In this document: piece by piece, positions 9,526 to 20,886 of the stretch | How the letters are laid out: the number at the start of each line of letters is the position of its first letter | How positions within the stretch are numbered: the stretch's first letter is position 1 | The notes under the pieces: model-generated | The model's input: the letters and a program-made list of their open reading frames with translations, nothing else | What the model was told of the DNA's origin: nothing | Database searches by the model: none | Made by a program: the position numbers and the translations under genes | IMG/VR virus record: IMGVR_UViG_3300038317_000206 | Location: 1 to 21,247 of that record | DNA: 21,247 nucleotides | Direction: 5' to 3' (one strand) | DNA from: a virus

Positions 9526-10814
9526 AACTATACTCCAACGTTGATGTATATACAGCCGCCAGCCTCCGCATGAATTATATATTTGAAAACTTTGAAAAAA
9601 TATGCGTTTCGTTTTCAGGAGGTAAGGATTCTGGAGTAGCACTAATGCTTGCATTACAAGCAGCTAAAAAATATAATAAAAAAATTGGTGTTCTATTCAT
9701 TGATTTGGAGGGGCAATACAAACTTACTATAGATTACATAGAGCGCGTACTCAATGACAATTCCGAATGGATTGATCCATATTGGGTTTGCCTACCCATC
9801 AATCTTAGAAACGCTGTATCAGTATATCAGCCTTTCTGGTGTTGCTGGGAACCAGGGCACGAAGACAAATGGATAAGACAAATGCCATCACATCCTGCAG
9901 TAATCTCTGATCAATCATATTTTCCATTCTGGAAGTATAGAATGGAATTTGAAGAGTTTGTACCTGAGTTTGCTAAATGGTATGCGGACGGAGAAAAAAC
10001 GGCTACAATTGTAGGCATTAGATCAGACGAGAGTCTGAACCGATACAGGACAATAGCATCTAAATCGAAGGAAACTATAGATGGGAATCAATGGACTACC
10101 AGGCTATTTCAAGATCAAGATATTTACAATGTATACCCAATCTATGACTGGAGAACTGAAGATATCTGGACTGCTAATGGAAGATTTGAGTGGGACTATA
10201 ATCGACTATATGACATGTTTTACAAAGCAGGCGTTCCCCTTTCTAATATGAGGATCTGTCAGCCGTACGGCGACGACCAGAGGATTGGGTTAAATCTTTT
10301 CAGAGTAATTGAGCCTGAAACGTGGGCTAAGGTCGTTAACAGGGTATCTGGAGCAAACTTTGGAAACATATACGCAGGAAACAAGATCTTAGGATATCGA
10401 AACGTGAAACTACCACCAAATCATACATGGGAGAGTTATACAAATTTGTTGTTAGCTACACTTCCTAATGAAATGCGTGATAATTATATTAATAAATTTA
10501 AGAAGTTCGTAGCACATTGGAGGGACAAAGGATCCGGTCTCCCTGAGGACATTATTCCATCATTACCAGACTGTGCTGAAGTAAGTGATGAGATTACAAC
10601 AAGGGGTAGCAAGGATAAAAGACTTGTTAGGTTCTATAAAGTTCCAGATACAATGGATCATAAATTAGAGAGTAAACATGCAGGGCCCACCTGGAGAAGG
10701 ATGGCAATATGTATACTCAAAAATGATTATTTATGTAAGGGGCTGAGTTTTGCGCAGACTAAAGACCAATCTGAAAAAATGAGATTGCTTATTGATAAAT
10801 ATAAAAACATCTGA
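9522..10814 (+). CDS. PAPS-reductase-like / DUF3440 protein (YbdN/IbrA-like)
   Basis: PP-loop SFSGGKDS, plus GIRSDESLNR, PIYDW and MRICQPYG motifs; long C-terminal extension ending WRRMAICILKND. Confidence 0.85.
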   Translation: MKLYSNVDVYTAASLRMNYIFENFEKICVSFSGGKDSGVALMLALQAAKKYNKKIGVLFIDLEGQYKLTIDYIERVLNDNSEWIDPYWVCLPINLRNAVSVYQPFWCCWEPGHEDKWIRQMPSHPAVISDQSYFPFWKYRMEFEEFVPEFAKWYADGEKTATIVGIRSDESLNRYRTIASKSKETIDGNQWTTRLFQDQDIYNVYPIYDWRTEDIWTANGRFEWDYNRLYDMFYKAGVPLSNMRICQPYGDDQRIGLNLFRVIEPETWAKVVNRVSGANFGNIYAGNKILGYRNVKLPPNHTWESYTNLLLATLPNEMRDNYINKFKKFVAHWRDKGSGLPEDIIPSLPDCAEVSDEITTRGSKDKRLVRFYKVPDTMDHKLESKHAGPTWRRMAICILKNDYLCKGLSFAQTKDQSEKMRLLIDKYKNI

Positions 10815-12191: not shown

Positions 12192-14027
12192 ATGCCAGAT
12201 TCAGATCAACTCTTTTCTACAACTCCAAAAGACCTCCAAGCCTCTCCAGTAGGCGCCGGAGTCGCGGAACCCTCAGATTATCCCTATTTCTCCCATGAAA
12301 AAACCCTAAAATGGATAAATGAAACCAAAGAGAAACTCCCTCGCGCGACTCCAAAAATGAGACAAGAGGCGTTTTTAGCAGATCCATTACTCAAAGGGAC
12401 AATCTACCCATACCTAAAAAATGTCCTCCTCAAGGGGTTTTCAATACAGACTAAAGATAATAAACTGTATTCTGCAGCAATCGAAGAGATAACAGACTAT
12501 CTAGAGTCTCTCGATTTAATGCAGGTTTTCCGCGATGACTATCTAGATTTCGCAATTCTGACCGGAAACTCATACCGCAGGATGGACCCTGACAAAACAG
12601 GAAACATCATAAGACTGGAAAAAATAGAACCTTCCTCAGTTGAAGTCTATAATGACCCCTGGGACTCCTCAGTCGTGGCCTATCATCAACATGCAAGGAT
12701 TCAGAAAACATGGTCAAAATTTGGATCTTATGAGGATGTCGATAGCTGGTTTATTCCGTACACTCTTGCCACTTTTGAAATTCCTATCACCATACATGAT
12801 GTTAATGCTACCTACATTCAGGGGCGTGGGGTTGGTAACAATTTAAAAGTCTATGATCTGTTCGAGACATATAAAAATAAATACAATATATCATCAATCT
12901 CAAATCTTAGAATTGCAGCAGCTGAGCGCGTAATTGCTATGCATAATACACAGGCTACGCAGAAATATAATTATGATGATGACGACGACAGTTACAAGAA
13001 TTATAATCCTGCGCCAATCGATTCCGTAATCTTAGCTATCTGGCTTAAACGTTTACTTCTTGTCACATCTCCGAATCTAATCTATGCTGCTCTCTCCCCG
13101 TTCCTACATTTGATATCTGGAGTTCTAAAAGAGAGCAAGGACAACATGGGCAATCCTGTAATCATTTCATCACTTCCTAAGAAACCGTACCAAGGTTCAA
13201 TGAACTATGAAGCTGAACTGGCTAACTATAATGCGTTTGTAGATTCGATAAACAAAGCTGGAAAGGAAGTTATCAACTCCCTCAAAAACGGCGGAGTCTT
13301 TGTATCAGGTCCAGACATAGCACTTAAACCGGTTGAATCTTCGAGAAATGTGTCATTCCAGCTAATACAAGGACTTATTAACAATCTCAATGAGGAAATA
13401 GGGTTTAATTTTGGTTTTCCAATGTCGCTAGTGCTGGCAACAGGCACTGAACTTGCATCATCCCGCAACATCCTTCAAATATTCAACTCAGTGCACGCGG
13501 GGGAGCGCACGGAATATGAAGCGGTTGCAGATAGGATTATACGGCTTATGTTCGAAGGAAGAACCTGGCAGGGTATAACAACAGACGGAGAAGAAGAAAC
13601 AACTGTAACATATTCTTTTGATGATATAAAAGCGCGGTTTGTTCTGGATATGCCAGATACTAAAGATCTACTCACCGAGGCGCAGACATTCAAAACACGG
13701 GCAGAGACATTAACTCAGATCAAATATATAGGAGCCTGCAGGGAAGATCTGCAAGCCCTTGGAGAGGAATACGGGTTTGGACTGCTGGGGCTTGACAATT
13801 TCAGAGCTGCTACTGAGCCGGATAACCTCATGATTCCACAACAGGATGCAAGCGCGATCAATGCAATATTAAAATCATGTTTGTATCAGGTCCTGCAGGA
13901 GGATGGATTGATTTCTAAGGCAAATCCAACGGCTCCCAGTGGATTTAAAGAAGATAAGATTGTAAAAAAATTACAGGACGCTTATGAGACTGCGCAGGAG
14001 ACAATATTAGAAGTCTTTGACGTATAA
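12192..14027 (+). CDS. Portal protein
   Basis: 611 aa; portal-like patterns DPLLKGTI, DFAILTGNSY and LEKIEPSSVEV; located between terL and the gp7-like gene. Confidence 0.8.
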   Translation: MPDSDQLFSTTPKDLQASPVGAGVAEPSDYPYFSHEKTLKWINETKEKLPRATPKMRQEAFLADPLLKGTIYPYLKNVLLKGFSIQTKDNKLYSAAIEEITDYLESLDLMQVFRDDYLDFAILTGNSYRRMDPDKTGNIIRLEKIEPSSVEVYNDPWDSSVVAYHQHARIQKTWSKFGSYEDVDSWFIPYTLATFEIPITIHDVNATYIQGRGVGNNLKVYDLFETYKNKYNISSISNLRIAAAERVIAMHNTQATQKYNYDDDDDSYKNYNPAPIDSVILAIWLKRLLLVTSPNLIYAALSPFLHLISGVLKESKDNMGNPVIISSLPKKPYQGSMNYEAELANYNAFVDSINKAGKEVINSLKNGGVFVSGPDIALKPVESSRNVSFQLIQGLINNLNEEIGFNFGFPMSLVLATGTELASSRNILQIFNSVHAGERTEYEAVADRIIRLMFEGRTWQGITTDGEEETTVTYSFDDIKARFVLDMPDTKDLLTEAQTFKTRAETLTQIKYIGACREDLQALGEEYGFGLLGLDNFRAATEPDNLMIPQQDASAINAILKSCLYQVLQEDGLISKANPTAPSGFKEDKIVKKLQDAYETAQETILEVFDV

Positions 14028-14148
14028 GGTTGAAGTTTGTATATTTTCTCGTCAGACGGCTCCTCATGAAGCCAACTTTTAAAATTAATTAGATAACTAT
14101 CTTACATTCAATTTTCCTTTTTTATATCAACAACATTCTTTTTAATCG

Positions 14149-14967
14149 ATGACATTTAACCTCACCACCTTCAAGAAATCCATTAAAACTTCTTTTAAAC
14201 AGATAACAAAATCACAAGCTGAAGCTCTGTCCCTTGAAATCGCCGTAAACTACACAGCAGGCAGGACCGCAGCAGCAAAACACCAGTCCACAAAGTCACT
14301 CAGATCTGAAGAACTAGATGATGACGAAGGACTCACGACCGAGGAAAAAGCTGAAATCGCCGTATTAGTAGCACTATTTTTAGGATATATTAATAAATTT
14401 AATGATGTTGCCCAGGATCAGATCATATCTCAAGTCAAAACTATGGTCAAAGATGGAAAAACAGCGGATGAGATCCGAGACTATGTTCAGGCAGTCTTCT
14501 CCGGAGAGGAAACAATCATAATTGACAATGTAGGCAAAACGAAAAAAGAAATTTACGTTGATAAGAACCTCAAATTATCCGAGGTATCTAAGACGATTGA
14601 GAATCCATTTTATGCGTCTGTTCTAGTATATGCGTCTCTTCTAGGGGAGAACGCCGCACACAGAGCTTATGAGGCGGGCAGAACATCACAAAATAAAATA
14701 GACGGCTTCGACAGTTGGGTTTTCGCAGGTCCTGCAGATGAACGAGCGCGTCCTTGGCATATTGCCCTATTAGGTCAGGTCTACAAATATGGTACTGTAC
14801 AATCCGAATACGCTGAGAGCTGTCTGAGAGAACCCAGATGCCGTCACCGAGCGCAGGTCTATTATGGAGATTCCAGGGATGTACCCGCGGAGAGATGGGA
14901 GAAATTAAAAAAGGATGTTGGGTTGCATTGGGATGATGAAAAGATGGAATGGAGCATCGGCATTTAA
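14149..14967 (+). CDS. Minor head/morphogenesis protein (SPP1 gp7 / Mu gpF-like)
   Basis: W...DERARPWHIALLG...PRCRHR resembles the gp7 D-x-R-x-R-x-x-H ... P-x-C-R-C motif; follows portal. Confidence 0.75.
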   Translation: MTFNLTTFKKSIKTSFKQITKSQAEALSLEIAVNYTAGRTAAAKHQSTKSLRSEELDDDEGLTTEEKAEIAVLVALFLGYINKFNDVAQDQIISQVKTMVKDGKTADEIRDYVQAVFSGEETIIIDNVGKTKKEIYVDKNLKLSEVSKTIENPFYASVLVYASLLGENAAHRAYEAGRTSQNKIDGFDSWVFAGPADERARPWHIALLGQVYKYGTVQSEYAESCLREPRCRHRAQVYYGDSRDVPAERWEKLKKDVGLHWDDEKMEWSIGI

Positions 14968-15001
14968 ATATATTTAAGTGTATATTTATAAGAAATATAA
15001 T

Positions 15002-15081
15002 AACAGTGCAGGCAGGGGAAAACGGACATTAACCCCTGATATCCTGCGTTCAGAAGGCGTTAACTTCTGTGGTGCACTGTT
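15002..15081 (-). ncRNA. Candidate structured antisense sRNA (closing stem plus two hairpins)
   Basis: 9-bp closing stem 15002-15010/15073-15081; 6-bp hairpins 15013-18/15033-38 and 15051-56/15064-69. Minus-strand TATA-like box at ~15111-15122; loop regions complementary to 15840-15852 and 15877-15884. Confidence 0.6.
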
Positions 15082-15148
15082 GATGCACTCAAATCATATA
15101 TTGAAAAATCATATATTTATATTTACTTCTCGTTTTAAAAAAAAGAAA

Positions 15149-15406
15149 TTAAAAATTGTTATTTCGTCTCATTTTGTAATCTATTTTTGAGATCGTATTT
15201 CTACCAACTCCTGTAAGAGCCGCGACCTCCCGGACTCCATAATAAAAACCAGTCTCCGGATTGATAGTCCGCAATTTCAGTTTAATATCCTTAATTACAG
15301 ACTCTTCAATTTTGTTGCTCGGTGTTGATCGCACCTGAGCTTCCTCTTGAAACGCTTTCCATCGAGATTCTGGAGTTCCTGAGGTGCAGTATCTCATATT
15401 CCCCAC
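15149..15406 (-). CDS. HTH DNA-binding protein
   Basis: C-terminal YGVREVAALTGVGRNTISKI is an HTH pattern; last gene of the leftward operon. Confidence 0.7.
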   Translation of the reverse strand: MGNMRYCTSGTPESRWKAFQEEAQVRSTPSNKIEESVIKDIKLKLRTINPETGFYYGVREVAALTGVGRNTISKIDYKMRRNNNF

Positions 15407-15570
15407 TCGGAGTCCTCCTCGTATGGATTCCGTACAGTATACAACGAACGGAGCTCGGTATCGTCTTCATCAGGGAAACATTCCGGATGCTCCTCCAAAA
15501 ATGTTGGGAAATCTGGGCTCGATTCTCCAAATGAGTCCGGATGAAGGGAATAATAGGTAGGGGATATCAT
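15394..15570 (-). CDS. Small acidic hypothetical protein
   Basis: MISPTYY... starts at an ATGA overlap (15570) with a GGAGGGGT RBS; very acidic. Confidence 0.55.
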   Translation of the reverse strand: MISPTYYSLHPDSFGESSPDFPTFLEEHPECFPDEDDTELRSLYTVRNPYEEDSEWGI

Positions 15571-15689
15571 AGCGCACCCCTCCAACTCTTTGCATTTGCA
15601 GCCCTCTTAAATCGAGGAAGCTGTTTATCGTGGCGGATTGCTTGAACCCGCCTGCCTGCCATTACAACCGTGAACTGTTTTTCAGTCAT
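15567..15689 (-). CDS. Small basic hypothetical protein (40 aa; not in ORF track)
   Basis: MTEKQFTVVMAGRRVQAIRHDKQLPRFKRAANAKSWRGAL*; ATGA overlaps at both ends; GGAGGT RBS. Confidence 0.55.
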   Translation of the reverse strand: MTEKQFTVVMAGRRVQAIRHDKQLPRFKRAANAKSWRGAL

Positions 15690-15838
15690 GCAGTGACCTC
15701 CGATAGATAGCAGGTTGCTACTGCACACCTGTCTCCATCGTCGAAATGGACTAGGGATTCGTCGTCATTCGACTGTATTACACGACCAGTTGTTTTCTGG
15801 TTTCCAAATCTTACTATTGTACCAAATTTAAAACTCAT
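15686..15838 (-). CDS. Small beta-rich hypothetical protein (50 aa; not in ORF track), first gene of the leftward operon
   Basis: MSFKFGTIVRFGNQKTTGRVIQSNDDESLVHFDDGDRCAVATCYLSEVTA*; AGAAGG upstream; SH3/KOW-like residue pattern. Confidence 0.6.
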   Translation of the reverse strand: MSFKFGTIVRFGNQKTTGRVIQSNDDESLVHFDDGDRCAVATCYLSEVTA

Positions 15839-15839
15839 T

Positions 15840-15897
15840 GTTAACGCCTTCTATATTTTTACACTTGGGCAATGTTTGTCCGTTGGCCCTAGTGCAA
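15840..15897 (-). promoter_or_regulatory. Structured 5' leader of the leftward operon; candidate antisense target
   Basis: Hairpin CACUAGGGCCAA-CGGACAAACA-UUGCCCAAGUG, then AGAAGGCGUUAAC two bases before the AUG. Confidence 0.55.
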
Positions 15898-15916
15898 GTA
15901 AGTATACACATCCAAA

Positions 15917-15969
15917 GTATATATAAGTTACCAATGGTAACAATATTACCTTAGGTAACTTATATATAC
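15917..15969. promoter_or_regulatory. Palindromic divergent promoter/operator
   Basis: Perfect 16-bp inverted repeat GTATATATAAGTTACC / GGTAACTTATATATAC containing back-to-back TATA boxes; inner (G/A)TTACC-N3-GGTAAC sites twice. Confidence 0.85.
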
Positions 15970-15990
15970 AATTAACATGTATCTAGATAT

Positions 15991-16218
15991 ATGGCAAAAG
16001 AACGCACTGGAGATTCCACTCACAAGAGAATCTCGTATAAAAATGTAGATAGAATTATGGATATTGGAAAAATGGGAGACTCATTTGATGATGTAATAAG
16101 CAGAGTATTGGATTACTGGGAAGATGGACATAAGAAAGGGGATGTGTTTTTAAAAGGGAAGGGTTTAACACATGATTTGATTGATTCGGTTCACGATTCT
16201 GTGTTCCCCCCACGTTAA
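15991..16218 (+). CDS. Ribbon-helix-helix (CopG/Arc-like) repressor, putative
   Basis: STHKRISYKNVDRIMDIGKMGDSFDDVISRVLD fits the archaeal RHH-like pattern; starts ~22 bp after the rightward TATA, so probably leaderless. Confidence 0.65.
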   Translation: MAKERTGDSTHKRISYKNVDRIMDIGKMGDSFDDVISRVLDYWEDGHKKGDVFLKGKGLTHDLIDSVHDSVFPPR

Positions 16219-16254
16219 AATTCTTGCAAAGTTTGACTGCAGATTATTATTTTA

Positions 16255-16437
16255 TCATTCATTTTCATAATATTTATCAATTTTATCTTTTTCCTCTTCT
16301 GTTATCTCTTCTAAAAACAATAAATACTCGTCAAGTCCAGCCATCATTATATATATATCAGATTTGTCCTCTGCTTCGAGGACTTTTTTACTTAAGTTAG
16401 AATGTGGATTAACCGAAGTTGATATGAAGTATCTCAT
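16255..16437 (-). CDS. Small hypothetical protein
   Basis: 60-aa ORF with ATGA overlap and AGGAG RBS. Confidence 0.55.
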   Translation of the reverse strand: MRYFISTSVNPHSNLSKKVLEAEDKSDIYIMMAGLDEYLLFLEEITEEEKDKIDKYYENE

Positions 16438-16583
16438 TTTTCACACTCCTTCTCTTCAATAAGTTTTAATCTGGCAAATCCTACATCTTGTGTAAAATTC
16501 GAAGGAAATATCATATTTCCGTACTCATCTTCTGTAACAATTCCTTTATATTTATCATTTACATATAATTCATATTTGTTCAT
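16434..16583 (-). CDS. Small hypothetical protein (49 aa; not in ORF track)
   Basis: MNKYELYVNDKYKGIVTEDEYGNMIFPSNFTQDVGFARLKLIEEKECEK*; GGAGAGG RBS; overlaps the next gene. Confidence 0.55.
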   Translation of the reverse strand: MNKYELYVNDKYKGIVTEDEYGNMIFPSNFTQDVGFARLKLIEEKECEK

Positions 16584-16600
16584 TTATTTCCTCTCCTTTT

Positions 16601-16651
16601 AATATCCCCCATTCCATAAGCCTCTTCTTTATGTCTCGCATTTCGTAATCA
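16601..16651 (-). pseudogene. 3' remnant of a second integrase gene
   Basis: DYEMRDIKKRLMEWGIL versus DYEMRDIEKRLTEWGIL in the intact recombinase (15/17 aa); 16601-16653 matches 19084-19136 at 42/53 nt. Confidence 0.85.
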
Positions 16652-17324: not shown

Positions 17325-17492
17325 TCAAAATGTTGTACGATTTGCTAACGATACAGCGCAAACATCACAATCAAAATCAATGAATAGGTCATCTCTGAAT
17401 CGCTTATCTCCATCTGGGTATATCGAAACGCTCTGTCTGTAGTCAAAGGAGTCTCCATTTGAAATTAAGTTTTCTCGTATTTGTAGAGTCAT
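17325..17492 (-). CDS. Small hypothetical protein (55 aa; not in ORF track)
   Basis: MTLQIRENLISNGDSFDYRQSVSIYPDGDKRFRDDLFIDFDCDVCAVSLANRTTF*; fills the gap in the operon. Confidence 0.5.
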   Translation of the reverse strand: MTLQIRENLISNGDSFDYRQSVSIYPDGDKRFRDDLFIDFDCDVCAVSLANRTTF

Positions 17493-18227: not shown

Positions 18228-18262
18228 TAATAGTCTTAATAGTATTAATAGTTATTTAAATA
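18228..18262 (-). promoter_or_regulatory. Promoter with three ACTATTA direct repeats (9-bp period) upstream of the Zn-ribbon gene
   Basis: TAATAGT at 18228, 18237 and 18246 on the plus strand, next to a TTTATTTAAATA TATA-like element on the minus strand. Confidence 0.45.
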
Positions 18263-18615
18263 AAAATAAGAAGTTTAAATACACTACAGTACAACTCTAT
18301 ACACTAATGTAAGAGTTAACGAAACTATCTAAACAAGTCTAAAACAATATCGAAATAATAGGCACCGAGTGCCACATAAAAAATGATATTTAATTTTGCT
18401 ATACGTTTCTCAATGTTTATTTACAAAAAAGTTTGGGTATATCGAAGACATGTTTAATATTCCTATATACTATGTAATTATTGGGAAAACAAACACATAG
18501 GGGAGAAATGAAAAGGTTAAAAGATTAGGTTTGATTAAAAAATAGAAATTAATTTTATAAGGGTTAACGTATGTTAAAAACGTTATTGGTATAACGATGT
18601 ATATACTTATACATT

Positions 18616-19073: not shown

Positions 19074-19661
19074 TCACTTCCTCAATATCCCCCATTCAGT
19101 TAATCTCTTCTCAATATCCCTCATTTCGTAATCAGTAAACGATAAACTCTGATAATGCCTTAAAGATGTTACAGGATCATGCCCCTGTCTCCCATATATT
19201 TCAATCTCAGGTATCCCACATTTCAGCATCCAGCTCTCAATAGTTTTCCTCGGAGTCTTCGGCCCTACTTTCGGCTCGATGCCCGCTTTTGCAGACCATC
19301 TTGATAAGTTCCTATTCCATGAGGTTCTATCAGGCGGTCTAGGAGCTTCCAGGAACGCCTTAAAAAGATAAGGAAATGTAGAAGGCAATTTGTCTATAGT
19401 CCTCTTTACAAGCTTCTGCTTAACCTTCTTCTGTGCGTCAGGCGGTAAGATAATCTGGTTTCTTTCTTTGTGATACCAGCCTGGATTATCATGCAGCCTT
19501 TGAAGCTCAATGTATCGCAGTCCTGTTATTACATTAAGCTCAAACGCCGGTCTATATGTTTTCTGCGGTTGTTTTTTTTCAGGGATAAACTGAATAAATT
19601 TATCATATTCTTGGACGGTTAGGACTTTTGTACCGTCGCCAGTTACTAGGCCGTTATCCAT
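19074..19661 (-). CDS. Short tyrosine recombinase/integrase (catalytic domain only, 195 aa)
   Basis: TGLRYIEL (catalytic R), PKTPRKT (KxxR in place of HxxR), QGH, and SLRHY (nucleophile Tyr). Confidence 0.88.
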   Translation of the reverse strand: MDNGLVTGDGTKVLTVQEYDKFIQFIPEKKQPQKTYRPAFELNVITGLRYIELQRLHDNPGWYHKERNQIILPPDAQKKVKQKLVKRTIDKLPSTFPYLFKAFLEAPRPPDRTSWNRNLSRWSAKAGIEPKVGPKTPRKTIESWMLKCGIPEIEIYGRQGHDPVTSLRHYQSLSFTDYEMRDIEKRLTEWGILRK

Positions 19662-19903: not shown

Positions 19904-20169
19904 TGTACTTTATTTTTAAAATCGTTTTCCTCTTTCAATAATTGTTGATTCATTTGCTCAGACGTTTTGTTTGCAACTGAATTAAGAAGGGGAATCGCAG
20001 CAGTAAGTATATTGATGCTTTCTTGGTCGTGTAGATAACTAAAAGACTCGTGTATATTCCATGTAGCACTTGTTAATGCCTGTATAACTTTTTCAAAACA
20101 TATCACTTCATCAGATTTTATCATGCGTTTATTCACCTTTAATTTTCTATACACACTATACAGCAACAT
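19840..20169 (-). CDS. Hypothetical protein with C-terminal CxxC-CxxC Zn finger
   Basis: RCFICGERECGECGK at the C-terminus; the start may be the later MIKSD. Confidence 0.55.
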   Translation of the reverse strand: MLLYSVYRKLKVNKRMIKSDEVICFEKVIQALTSATWNIHESFSYLHDQESINILTAAIPLLNSVANKTSEQMNQQLLKEENDFKNKVQCQKIVRCFICGERECGECGK

Positions 20170-20558: not shown

Positions 20559-20886
20559 TAACTATATGTGCTCCCTGCGGAACGATCAACCCAAGAGAAC
20601 ACCATCCAAATGAATAATACCCTAGAAGCCCGATAAAGCCCCACAATAAAGGATTGTGTAGGGCTCCGCGATGTTTAAACAGCTTATCTATAATCCATCC
20701 CAGTATAAACAGCCTTTTTCTCGAGCGTGAATTAGTATCCAGGTCGCAGGTGATAAACAACGTGCCGATTATCCAGAGTGTGATAAAAACGGAACTCTGT
20801 AAAATATCAAGATGTTGCCAGCCTAAAAAGAAAGTAGCTGGCAGTAACAGGAGAAAGTTTAAGCGTTCATGGTTTTTTCCGTTCAT
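20542..20886 (-). CDS. DUF2227-like membrane metal-binding protein
   Basis: CDLDTNS...HRGALH...HIVSD motifs set among hydrophobic helices. Confidence 0.65.
   Translation of the reverse strand: MNGKNHERLNFLLLLPATFFLGWQHLDILQSSVFITLWIIGTLFITCDLDTNSRSRKRLFILGWIIDKLFKHRGALHNPLLWGFIGLLGYYSFGWCSLGLIVPQGAHIVSDKVL

Follow-up and report, generated by a model that had tools for sequence, protein, structure and literature searches.

What is the conserved, strongly folding stretch of DNA that separates two convergent transcription units in the IMG/VR virus record IMGVR_UViG_3300038317_000206, and why do two of its loops read as complements of the leader of one of these units? The window analysed here is the entire contig (21,247 bp, linear and ~30% complete), and the element that concerns us occupies positions 15002-15081, between the stop codon of a gene for a Mu-F-like head protein (MuF; stop at 14967, plus strand), which lies 35 nucleotides (nt) away, and the stop codon at 15149 of a minus-strand operon of four open reading frames (ORFs). 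From sequence comparisons we favour, with a probability of roughly 0.55, the explanation that it encodes a trans-acting, virus-encoded antisense small RNA (sRNA) on the operon strand. The proposal is carried by the complementarity of both loops to the leader, including the ribosome binding site (RBS) of the first gene, by the recurrence of the same two motifs at a third site in close relatives and by a loop and target that change together in a divergent lineage. The features on which the argument depends are the following:

15002-15081, minus strand: structured core of the candidate sRNA, consisting of a closing stem and two hairpins (from folding, z about -3 to -4)
15052-15064, minus strand: seed 1, GUUAACGCCUUCU, whose loop UUAACGC is predicted to be unpaired, the rest being the 3′ arm of hairpin 1
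15021-15028, minus strand: seed 2, UGUCCGUU, in the 14-nt loop of hairpin 2
15840-15852, minus strand: target 1, AGAAGGCGUUAAC, a Shine-Dalgarno-like AGAAGG plus spacer, one base before the AUG of ORF1
15859-15897, minus strand: leader hairpin, which includes a G·U pair and hence favours the mRNA strand
15877-15884, minus strand: target 2, AACGGACA, in the loop of the leader hairpin

When 15002-15081 is folded alone, either strand forms a 9-bp closing stem (15002-15010 with 15073-15081) around two 6-bp hairpins with stems CAGGGG/CCCCTG and CAGAAG/CTTCTG (z about -3), and the z-scores range from -3.1 to -4.0 for the minus strand and from -3.0 to -3.1 for the plus strand. This is the architecture given in a preliminary description of the locus, and it holds for the isolated element; with the flanks included, however, a three-hairpin alternative is slightly better, and in this minimum-energy fold a local GUGCA/UGCAC hairpin and an extended GCAGG/CCUGC stem displace the closing stem. 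For the leader hairpin, the described fold with AACGGACA in the loop is likewise confirmed.

Both complements reported in that description are perfect and lie where it had placed them: a 13/13 inverted match joins 15052-15064 to 15840-15852, and the 8-nt block of hairpin 2 matches the leader loop, the two being colinear, with gaps of 23 nt (element) and 24 nt (leader) between them, and the targets are 775-850 nt away from the element. The only correction concerns the AUG, which is separated from the 13-mer by one base and not by two. Within the window, AACGGACA is found only at 15021-15028 (plus strand) and 15877-15884 (minus strand), and the 13-mer only at its two sites. The loop of seed 1 has a predicted unpaired probability of 0.88-1.0 and its duplex with the target reaches -19.5 kcal/mol, while cofolding of the element with the leader gains -13.4 kcal/mol, against 0 for the plus-strand control. 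The significance that can be drawn from the window alone is moderate. What is unusual in the match is its location on the Shine-Dalgarno sequence of the adjoining operon's first gene, together with the placement of the second block in the loops of both partners; as these are post hoc criteria, independent evidence was sought in relatives.

The element is present on contigs of four lineages, in three variants, with MuF proteins that, where listed, are 94%, 79% and 67% identical to that of the window. Although the flanking genes differ by 2-19% among the carriers, 77 of the 80 positions of the element are invariant, and all variation is confined to the unpaired linker 15070-15072 (TGG, GAA or GGG). 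Judging from the recombination joints, it behaves as a discrete module that is kept in every recombinant. For instance, in the relative L008 a DNA methyltransferase gene (192 amino acids, aa; phrog_757; L008:4517-5095, minus strand) is inserted between the last gene of the operon, which probably codes for a helix-turn-helix (HTH) protein, and the element with its promoter, and both the element and the repeats of the promoter are intact. Additionally, an RNA-library contig departs from the window sequence at 15100, and a landfill contig, with ~5x the depth of neighbouring contigs, joins 14985-15383 to unrelated upstream sequence. This last joint shows that the element can accompany the HTH gene in the absence of the head gene, and it is thus unlikely to be a mere 3′ untranslated region (UTR) of MuF. 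In the leaders of the relatives, the pair that closes the loop of the hairpin is C-G (window), U-A (L005) or C·A (L008, L047 and L049); the leader of L005 misses 8 nt between the target blocks, and target 1 of L008 (...UAAU) still pairs with the element through G·U.

Four relatives (L005, L006, L008 and L049) carry a further copy of both motifs, packed into 28 nt as GAGAAGGCGTTAATCATGAAACGGACA, where an unrelated rightward (plus-strand) gene begins downstream of an RHH-like gene. At this third site the order of the motifs is reversed, the gap is reduced to 5 nt and the match to loop 2 is extended to 10 nt. The expected chance count for both motifs recurring jointly in this way is far below 1e-4, and three co-occurrences of a 12-13-mer with an 8-10-mer between unrelated flanks cannot be attributed to chance. 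Since their order and spacing vary between sites, the motifs would be two independent recognition modules or seeds.

The searches made with the HTH protein, by profiles and by words, found few relatives. In L044, L045, L050, L051, L054, L055 and L069 the acidic ORF and the HTH gene, which are the last two of the operon, stand as a pair behind the gene for a ~400-aa Gp3-like protein (PF18897) that replaces ORF1 and ORF2, and a T-run lies behind the HTH gene wherever the contig extends past it (all but L051). In L044, L045 and L069 the next feature is a AACTTATATATA box, identical to the box of the window's bidirectional promoter, and ~26 nt past it there is a strongly structured RNA of ~150 nt (z -3.5) that ends in CCGTTTTTT, a T6 terminator. 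One-sided changes in the two 3′ hairpins of these RNAs all keep the pairing through G·U, the variable 5′ domain showing some broken pairs. Because several pairs are G·U and the terminator is strand-specific, both being found on the operon strand only, this RNA would be encoded by that strand. Its middle hairpin has a different stem and a loop, AAUGUCUGUUUUC, that is one base from loop 2 of the window, AAUGUCCGUUUUC, so that a loop core AAUGUC(C/U)GUUUUC is common to seed 2 of the window and to the RNAs of L044, L045 and L069, on a different stem; the last hairpin reuses the CAGGGG/CCCCUG stem.

L069 has the acidic/HTH pair, the T-run, the AACTTATATATA box, the structured RNA and CCGTTTTTT on one contig, and 12 bp can form between its hairpin loop AUGUCUGUUUUC and GGAAACAGACAU, positions +3 to +14 of the Gp3-like gene, just past the start codon, which is the longest complement of the structured RNA on that contig. 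The loop reads UGUCUGUU in L069 and UGUCCGUU in the window, and the target AACAGACA in L069 and AACGGACA in the window; that is, the change of the seed from C (window) to U (L069) is matched by a change of the target from G to A, a compensatory change in trans, and the cognate duplexes (-12.4 and -14.2 kcal/mol) are more stable than the cross-combinations (-10.2 and -9.5 kcal/mol). The logic of loops complementary to a Shine-Dalgarno sequence and a leader loop, put forward in the preliminary description, is therefore repeated in relatives; of the compensatory changes it had proposed to look for in homologous loci, the one between loop and target was found, at a single position, and the stems of the close relatives show none. 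Among the Gp3-like genes of contigs that have neither the HTH pair nor the RNA (L052, L071 and L072), the motif was not found, and the seed pattern of L044 had no match in viral contigs.

The features of the operon and its transcription signals, which any mechanism has to accommodate, are:

15091-15122, minus strand: promoter-like region, with two 12-bp direct repeats that overlap a TATA-like box, ~30 nt upstream of the closing stem
15137-15148, minus strand: T-rich tract TTTCTTTTTTTT, directly past the operon stop codon, likely the archaeal terminator of the operon
15149-15397, minus strand: ORF4, 82 aa, probable (winged) HTH protein
15394-15570, minus strand: ORF3, 58 aa, acidic, paired with the HTH gene in all relatives
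15567-15689, minus strand: ORF2, 40 aa, basic
15686-15838, minus strand: ORF1, 50 aa, first gene of the operon
15916-15927, minus strand: leftward TATA box CTTATATATAC of a palindromic bidirectional promoter, which predicts that the operon starts near 15896

The three junctions of the four ORFs are all ATGA stop/start overlaps (15394-15397, 15567-15570 and 15686-15689), and these overlaps imply translational coupling. In L008 an indel fuses ORF2 and ORF3 into a single ORF of 101 aa. The operon had been said to end in an HTH gene: the series of four ORFs stands, and the HTH identity is probable at the level of the fold, as the AF2 model of ORF4 (pLDDT 83) gives weak Foldseek matches (E>0.1), mostly to HTH or winged-helix DNA-binding domains, and ORF4 has no Pfam hit. 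Upstream of the element, the 12-bp direct repeat begins at 15091 and again at 15106, as previously noted, and the TATA-like box lies at 15111-15122; the corresponding sequence of L008, AACTTATAAATA, is close in sequence to the AACTTATATATA box that the operon promoter shares with the promoter of the L044/L069 RNA. Behind the HTH gene, a T-run equivalent to TTTCTTTTTTTT is present in L044, L050, L054, L055 and L069. The window has a promoter-like box ~30 nt upstream of the element and no clear terminator, and the L044 and L069 relatives have the box, the structured RNA and T6.

In the mechanism that we favour, the minus strand from ~15088 to 15000 would encode a small structured RNA, transcribed from its own TATA-type promoter (15111-15122) or produced as a 3′ extension of the operon transcript; both the use of this strand and the position of the 3′ end are predictions. 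Loop 1 (UUAACGC, extending into CCUUCU) would pair with the Shine-Dalgarno region of ORF1, AGAAGGCGUUAAC, and loop 2, UGUCCGUU, would kiss the AACGGACA loop of the leader hairpin. Occlusion of the sole RBS would stop the translation of ORF1 and then that of the whole coupled operon, and the repression would reach all four genes because they are coupled through the ATGA overlaps. In close relatives the same RNA might also cover the RBS and codons 2-4 of the rightward gene, and the related RNA of the divergent lineage would mask the start codon of the Gp3-like gene. Read-through of the element by the plus-strand late transcript is probable; the resulting RNA would be a perfect antisense of the sRNA and could, speculatively, titrate it. 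Any part of such a circuit in timing, or in the lysogeny or immunity suggested in the preliminary description, is conjectural. The contig carries a tyrosine-integrase gene (19074-19661), so that its virus may be temperate.

Several observations weigh against this mechanism. The stems of the window are all Watson-Crick and the plus strand folds as well as the minus strand; given that every pair of the element is Watson-Crick, the window cannot tell which strand is used. The promoter-like box of the minus strand is present, as had been claimed, but it has a counterpart on the plus strand, a TATA-like box at 14962-14973, ~29 nt upstream of the element. Past the element, the minus strand has no clear oligo-T terminator and no run of at least four U follows the structure, contrary to the U-rich tract of the preliminary description, and the next T-run is ~95 nt beyond, inside the MuF antisense. 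The RNA-library runs yielded only contigs, which may derive from DNA; those of the oligo-dT library are interrupted at 15100 and 15146 and give no information on a transcript, its strand or its ends, and stretches without coverage count for nothing as evidence. In the statistics of the window, the cofold gain with the leader, -12.6 kcal/mol, equals the best among ~2,100 non-self tiles but is not an outlier, other tiles reaching -11 to -12.6 kcal/mol, and a colinear 13+8 two-block match appears in 38 of 300 dinucleotide shuffles under loose gap settings. Concerning the relatives, the close ones are all 94-97% identical at the element, which is why no covariation of its stems is visible; L047 has one change that disrupts a pair of the leader stem, and its third site keeps only the RBS motif, in the same promoter/RBS cassette before a different gene. 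The covariance model of the window element misses the L044-type RNA, so the case for homology between the two is a 13-nt loop and a 6-bp stem that they share. Lastly, the co-variation of loop and target concerns one position in two lineages, and a shared double-stranded DNA or RNA motif bound by a protein would predict the same.

With regard to transcription, the two TATA-like boxes are mirror images (14962-14973 on the plus strand and 15111-15122 on the minus strand, 92% complementary, 29-30 nt outside the ends of the closing stem) and, since they flank the closing stem in this way, the element might be transcribed from both strands, as a sense/antisense pair. Archaeal transcription termination does not require a hairpin. 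A scan for bacterial-type promoters and terminators, which is not applicable to an archaeal host, found no hairpin followed by a T-run at the element on either strand.

Among the alternatives, the one that best survives is that a virus-encoded protein, such as the HTH protein or the neighbouring RHH-like one, recognises the two motifs in DNA or in RNA, the element being a third site that serves as operator or decoy. The presence of the same motifs at three places in relatives agrees with it, as do the DNA-binding genes that adjoin the element; the parallel change at both places in L069 would fit a co-evolving protein, and the plus-strand RNA of the element, likely the 3′ UTR of the head operon, has the motifs in the same sense as the mRNAs. 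We nonetheless consider it unlikely. The spacing of the motifs (27, 24, 16 and 5 nt) and their inverted order at the third site would be unusual for one protein complex, and the sites are on RBSs and start codons, not on TATA boxes or transcription starts. Furthermore, one motif is half buried in a stem in the element and single-stranded in the targets, and the element of L044 and L069 resembles an RNA gene, with its own promoter box, G·U-containing stems and a T6 terminator.

Next in order, and likewise unlikely, is a function on the plus strand, where the element would stabilise the 3′ UTR of the TerL-portal-MuF operon or serve in its termination, or would be a two-way barrier between the convergent units, and its likeness to the leader would be a relic of an old inverted duplication that no longer has a pairing function. 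Its location 35 nt past the MuF stop, between convergent genes, and the equally good plus-strand fold can be read in this sense, as can the fact that in L008 and in the X15 contig the element stays on the MuF side of the recombination joint; moreover, the plus-strand hairpin resembles the leader hairpin (GGGG..AACGGACA..CCCC against GGGC..AACGGACA..GCCC). However, distant MuF relatives (proteins 55-61% identical) are followed by other sequences and the element was not found there, the landfill contig joins the element to the HTH gene without MuF, and neither strand has a hairpin-plus-T-run terminator. A relic, in turn, would leave the third site and the co-variation of L069 unexplained and, as only the two motif blocks are alike and the 23-24 nt between them are unrelated, the pattern is unlike the neutral decay of a duplication.

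Another reading, a variant of the favoured mechanism, places the element in the 3′ UTR of the operon's own mRNA, reached by read-through of the T-run, so that its pairing in cis with the 5′ leader would circularise the message and limit its own translation. It shares with the trans-acting sRNA the strand, the orientation and the complementarity, and in L008 the methyltransferase gene reaches the element with no T-run between them. We regard it as improbable because TTTCTTTTTTTT, right after the stop codon, should end most archaeal transcription, because a TATA-like box lies at the proper distance in the window, L008, L044 and L069, and because the third target, being on the other strand, requires a diffusible RNA.

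The weakest explanation is chance, an AT-rich intergenic cluster of hairpins with two short words that recur by accident in a nearby leader; inverted 13-mer matches are indeed frequent in the contig (36 seed pairs against a shuffle mean of 7.7), the loose two-block match turns up in 13% of shuffles and other tiles have similar cofold gains, but the joint recurrence of the motifs at the third site, the loop/target match of L069 and an element that is invariant while its flanks vary, added to the position on the RBS and the placement in loops, make it very improbable.

Other identities were considered for the element and dropped: an att site or tRNA fragment and an IS200/IS605 end or guide RNA, as no feature supported them, and a type I toxin-antitoxin pair, as ORF1 is not hydrophobic. 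ARAGORN found no tRNA or tmRNA. An Rfam search, which the preliminary description had advised with the C4 families included, gave no relevant match for the whole window at gathering score or for 13460-16630 at E<=1, the latter producing only chance hits of microRNA (miRNA) models on the palindromic promoter. With the covariance model of the window element, none of 33 loci yielded another copy; 151 genomes from the order to which the Methanolobus host discussed below belongs yielded none either, a result that carries little weight as there was no positive control genome. Searches of viral contigs with the exact hairpin pattern and with the two-motif pattern returned the same lineage and chance hits only. 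L034 stops short of the element.

A trans-acting sRNA of this kind invites comparison with known systems. The C4 RNA of phages P1 and P7 and the CI RNA of P4 are small structured RNAs in which two loop sequences pair with two sites of a leader, cover the RBS of the first gene and silence the operon, and the element was originally described as their functional analogue. The analogy holds as far as the arrangement goes: two separate exposed sequences are complementary, in colinear order, to two sites, 13 nt at the Shine-Dalgarno sequence and 8 nt in a leader loop. It does not extend to kinship, and the element falls outside the C4/CI family: it has no sequence or structure match to the C4 family of Rfam and, while C4 and CI are excised from the 5′ leader of the very transcript they control, the element lies on the 3′ side of the operon, preceded by the likely T-rich terminator and a TATA-like box. 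Additionally, the Rho- or terminator-dependent polarity of P1 and P4 has no shown counterpart in Archaea, the likely host here being archaeal. In the plasmid pairs CopA/CopT and RNAI/RNAII, which are cis-antisense kissing pairs, mirrored hairpins arise automatically. As in them, both partners here show complementary bases in loops, and a 7-nt loop may nucleate a pairing that can extend into the stem; unlike in them, the mirrored hairpins are at separate loci.

To our knowledge, regulatory RNAs of archaeal viruses are almost unknown, the T_ant RNA of phage phiH, a cis-antisense RNA, being the one classical case, and few sRNA mechanisms have been worked out in methanogens. Our literature searches found no described trans-acting sRNA of an archaeal virus, which is not proof of absence. 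The nearest mechanistic precedent in Archaea is sRNA162 of Methanosarcina mazei, which, like sRNA41, was established experimentally as a trans-acting sRNA that masks RBSs (PMC3510493). The candidate would share with sRNA162 probably the host class, an intergenic origin and a pairing with the RBS region of a transcription-factor mRNA, and sRNA162 uses two distinct domains; in agreement with this type of regulator, short complementarity to translation starts was found at the leader, at the third site of L005, L006, L008 and L049 and at the Gp3-like gene of L069, with the C>U/G>A co-variation. It differs from the chromosomal sRNA162 and sRNA41 in being encoded by a virus, in being predicted, in targeting the neighbouring operon and in using two hairpin loops, including a loop-loop contact. 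In virus biology, the nearest precedent is T_ant of the Halobacterium phage phiH, so the claim that no equivalent was known in archaeal viruses has to be given up as far as antisense control is concerned. T_ant is directed, as an antisense RNA, at the 5′ region of an early transcript; it removes RBSs and takes part in immunity (Stolt & Zillig 1993, as reviewed in PMC4284463). In both cases an antisense RNA of an archaeal tailed virus would act, here as a prediction, on the RBS of an early gene; T_ant is cis-encoded and fully complementary to its target, whereas the element is ~800 nt away and has two short seeds. The element would be cis-antisense only to a read-through 3′ UTR of the MuF transcript.

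If the proposal is correct, the C4/CI type of logic of bacterial phages arose independently in Archaea. Co-varying seeds and targets, with one RBS in command of four coupled genes, would then offer a compact and testable model of post-transcriptional control in methanogens, and the combination of the seed loop with the HTH gene pair would be a sequence handle for more such genes in digester and landfill metagenomes. A wider version is a real if doubtful possibility: tailed viruses of methanogens might have a family of trans-acting sRNAs with the seed loop AAUGUC(C/U)GUUUUC, encoded beside the acidic/HTH pair, in which two loops clamp the starts of early or replication genes and the late head transcript acts as a sponge, so as to form an RNA-only early/late or lysogeny switch.

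The contig is that of a tailed virus, with genes for a large terminase, an SNF2 helicase with an intein, a PAPS-reductase/DUF3440 protein, a portal-like protein of 611 aa and MuF (14149-14967, plus strand). Homologues of MuF (39-43% identity) and of the 611-aa protein (47%) occur together on the chromosome of Methanolobus sp. WCC5, and the sequence is found in fermentation, landfill, bioreactor and manure metagenomes. Because of these head-gene homologues and sample types a methanogen, and thus archaeal, host is likely, as the preliminary description plausibly had it. MuF homologues are present in 10 of 392 genomes of the class of the Methanolobus host, and the HTH profile of ORF4 was not found in the same 392 genomes. 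The head gene is also on three short contigs in bacterial bins, and a blastn search of a phage database gave no match.

Some further observations concern the surroundings of the element. The homology of the window with L002 and L006 ends abruptly near 15905, inside the bidirectional promoter (window 15900-15990 against L002:5750-5950), and L002 has a different promoter region and a different rightward gene, which points to a mosaic joint near 15905. A portable promoter and RBS cassette, an AT-rich box followed by AAAGAGAAGGCGTTAATCATG, heads different genes in different relatives (L008:6270-6326, L005:12590-12645 and L047:2060-2110, minus strand) and is absent from the window. Downstream of the MuF head gene, L015 (3420-3515), L020 (3900-3976) and L022 (3900-3960) have a different conserved non-coding sequence (...AAAAACGCATACGGTAAAAAAGCAATCAAGAGACTTAATTTTGAGTACCTATGTG...), which may be another small RNA or site. 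Across the contig there are exact inverted matches of 13-17 nt between distant parts, with ~5x more seed pairs than in shuffles; they are not colinear and are unexplained:

2594-2610 with 18251-18267: distant inverted match
2811-2824 with 20107-20120: distant inverted match
2923-2935 with 20620-20632: distant inverted match
9693-9706 with 17374-17387: distant inverted match
12483-12496 with 16298-16311: distant inverted match

In the divergent lineage, the non-coding stretch of L044 (860-1440; also L045:930-1116 and L069:2500-2544) runs ~600 nt past the first structured RNA and contains more hairpin-rich modules, several of which end in ATCCGTTTTT(T) (four copies in L044), as well as a second TATA-like box, TTTAAATATATAAAC. 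It has no Rfam or tRNA hit and may be an array of small RNA genes. Finally, L044:812-827, which comprises the loop and the 3′ stem arm of the last hairpin, can pair over 16 nt (12 Watson-Crick and 4 G·U) with L050:1102-1117, the conserved CRGDG-coding part of the Gp3-like gene, and this is the best cofold tile (-13.4 kcal/mol), with a chance estimate of ~0.1.

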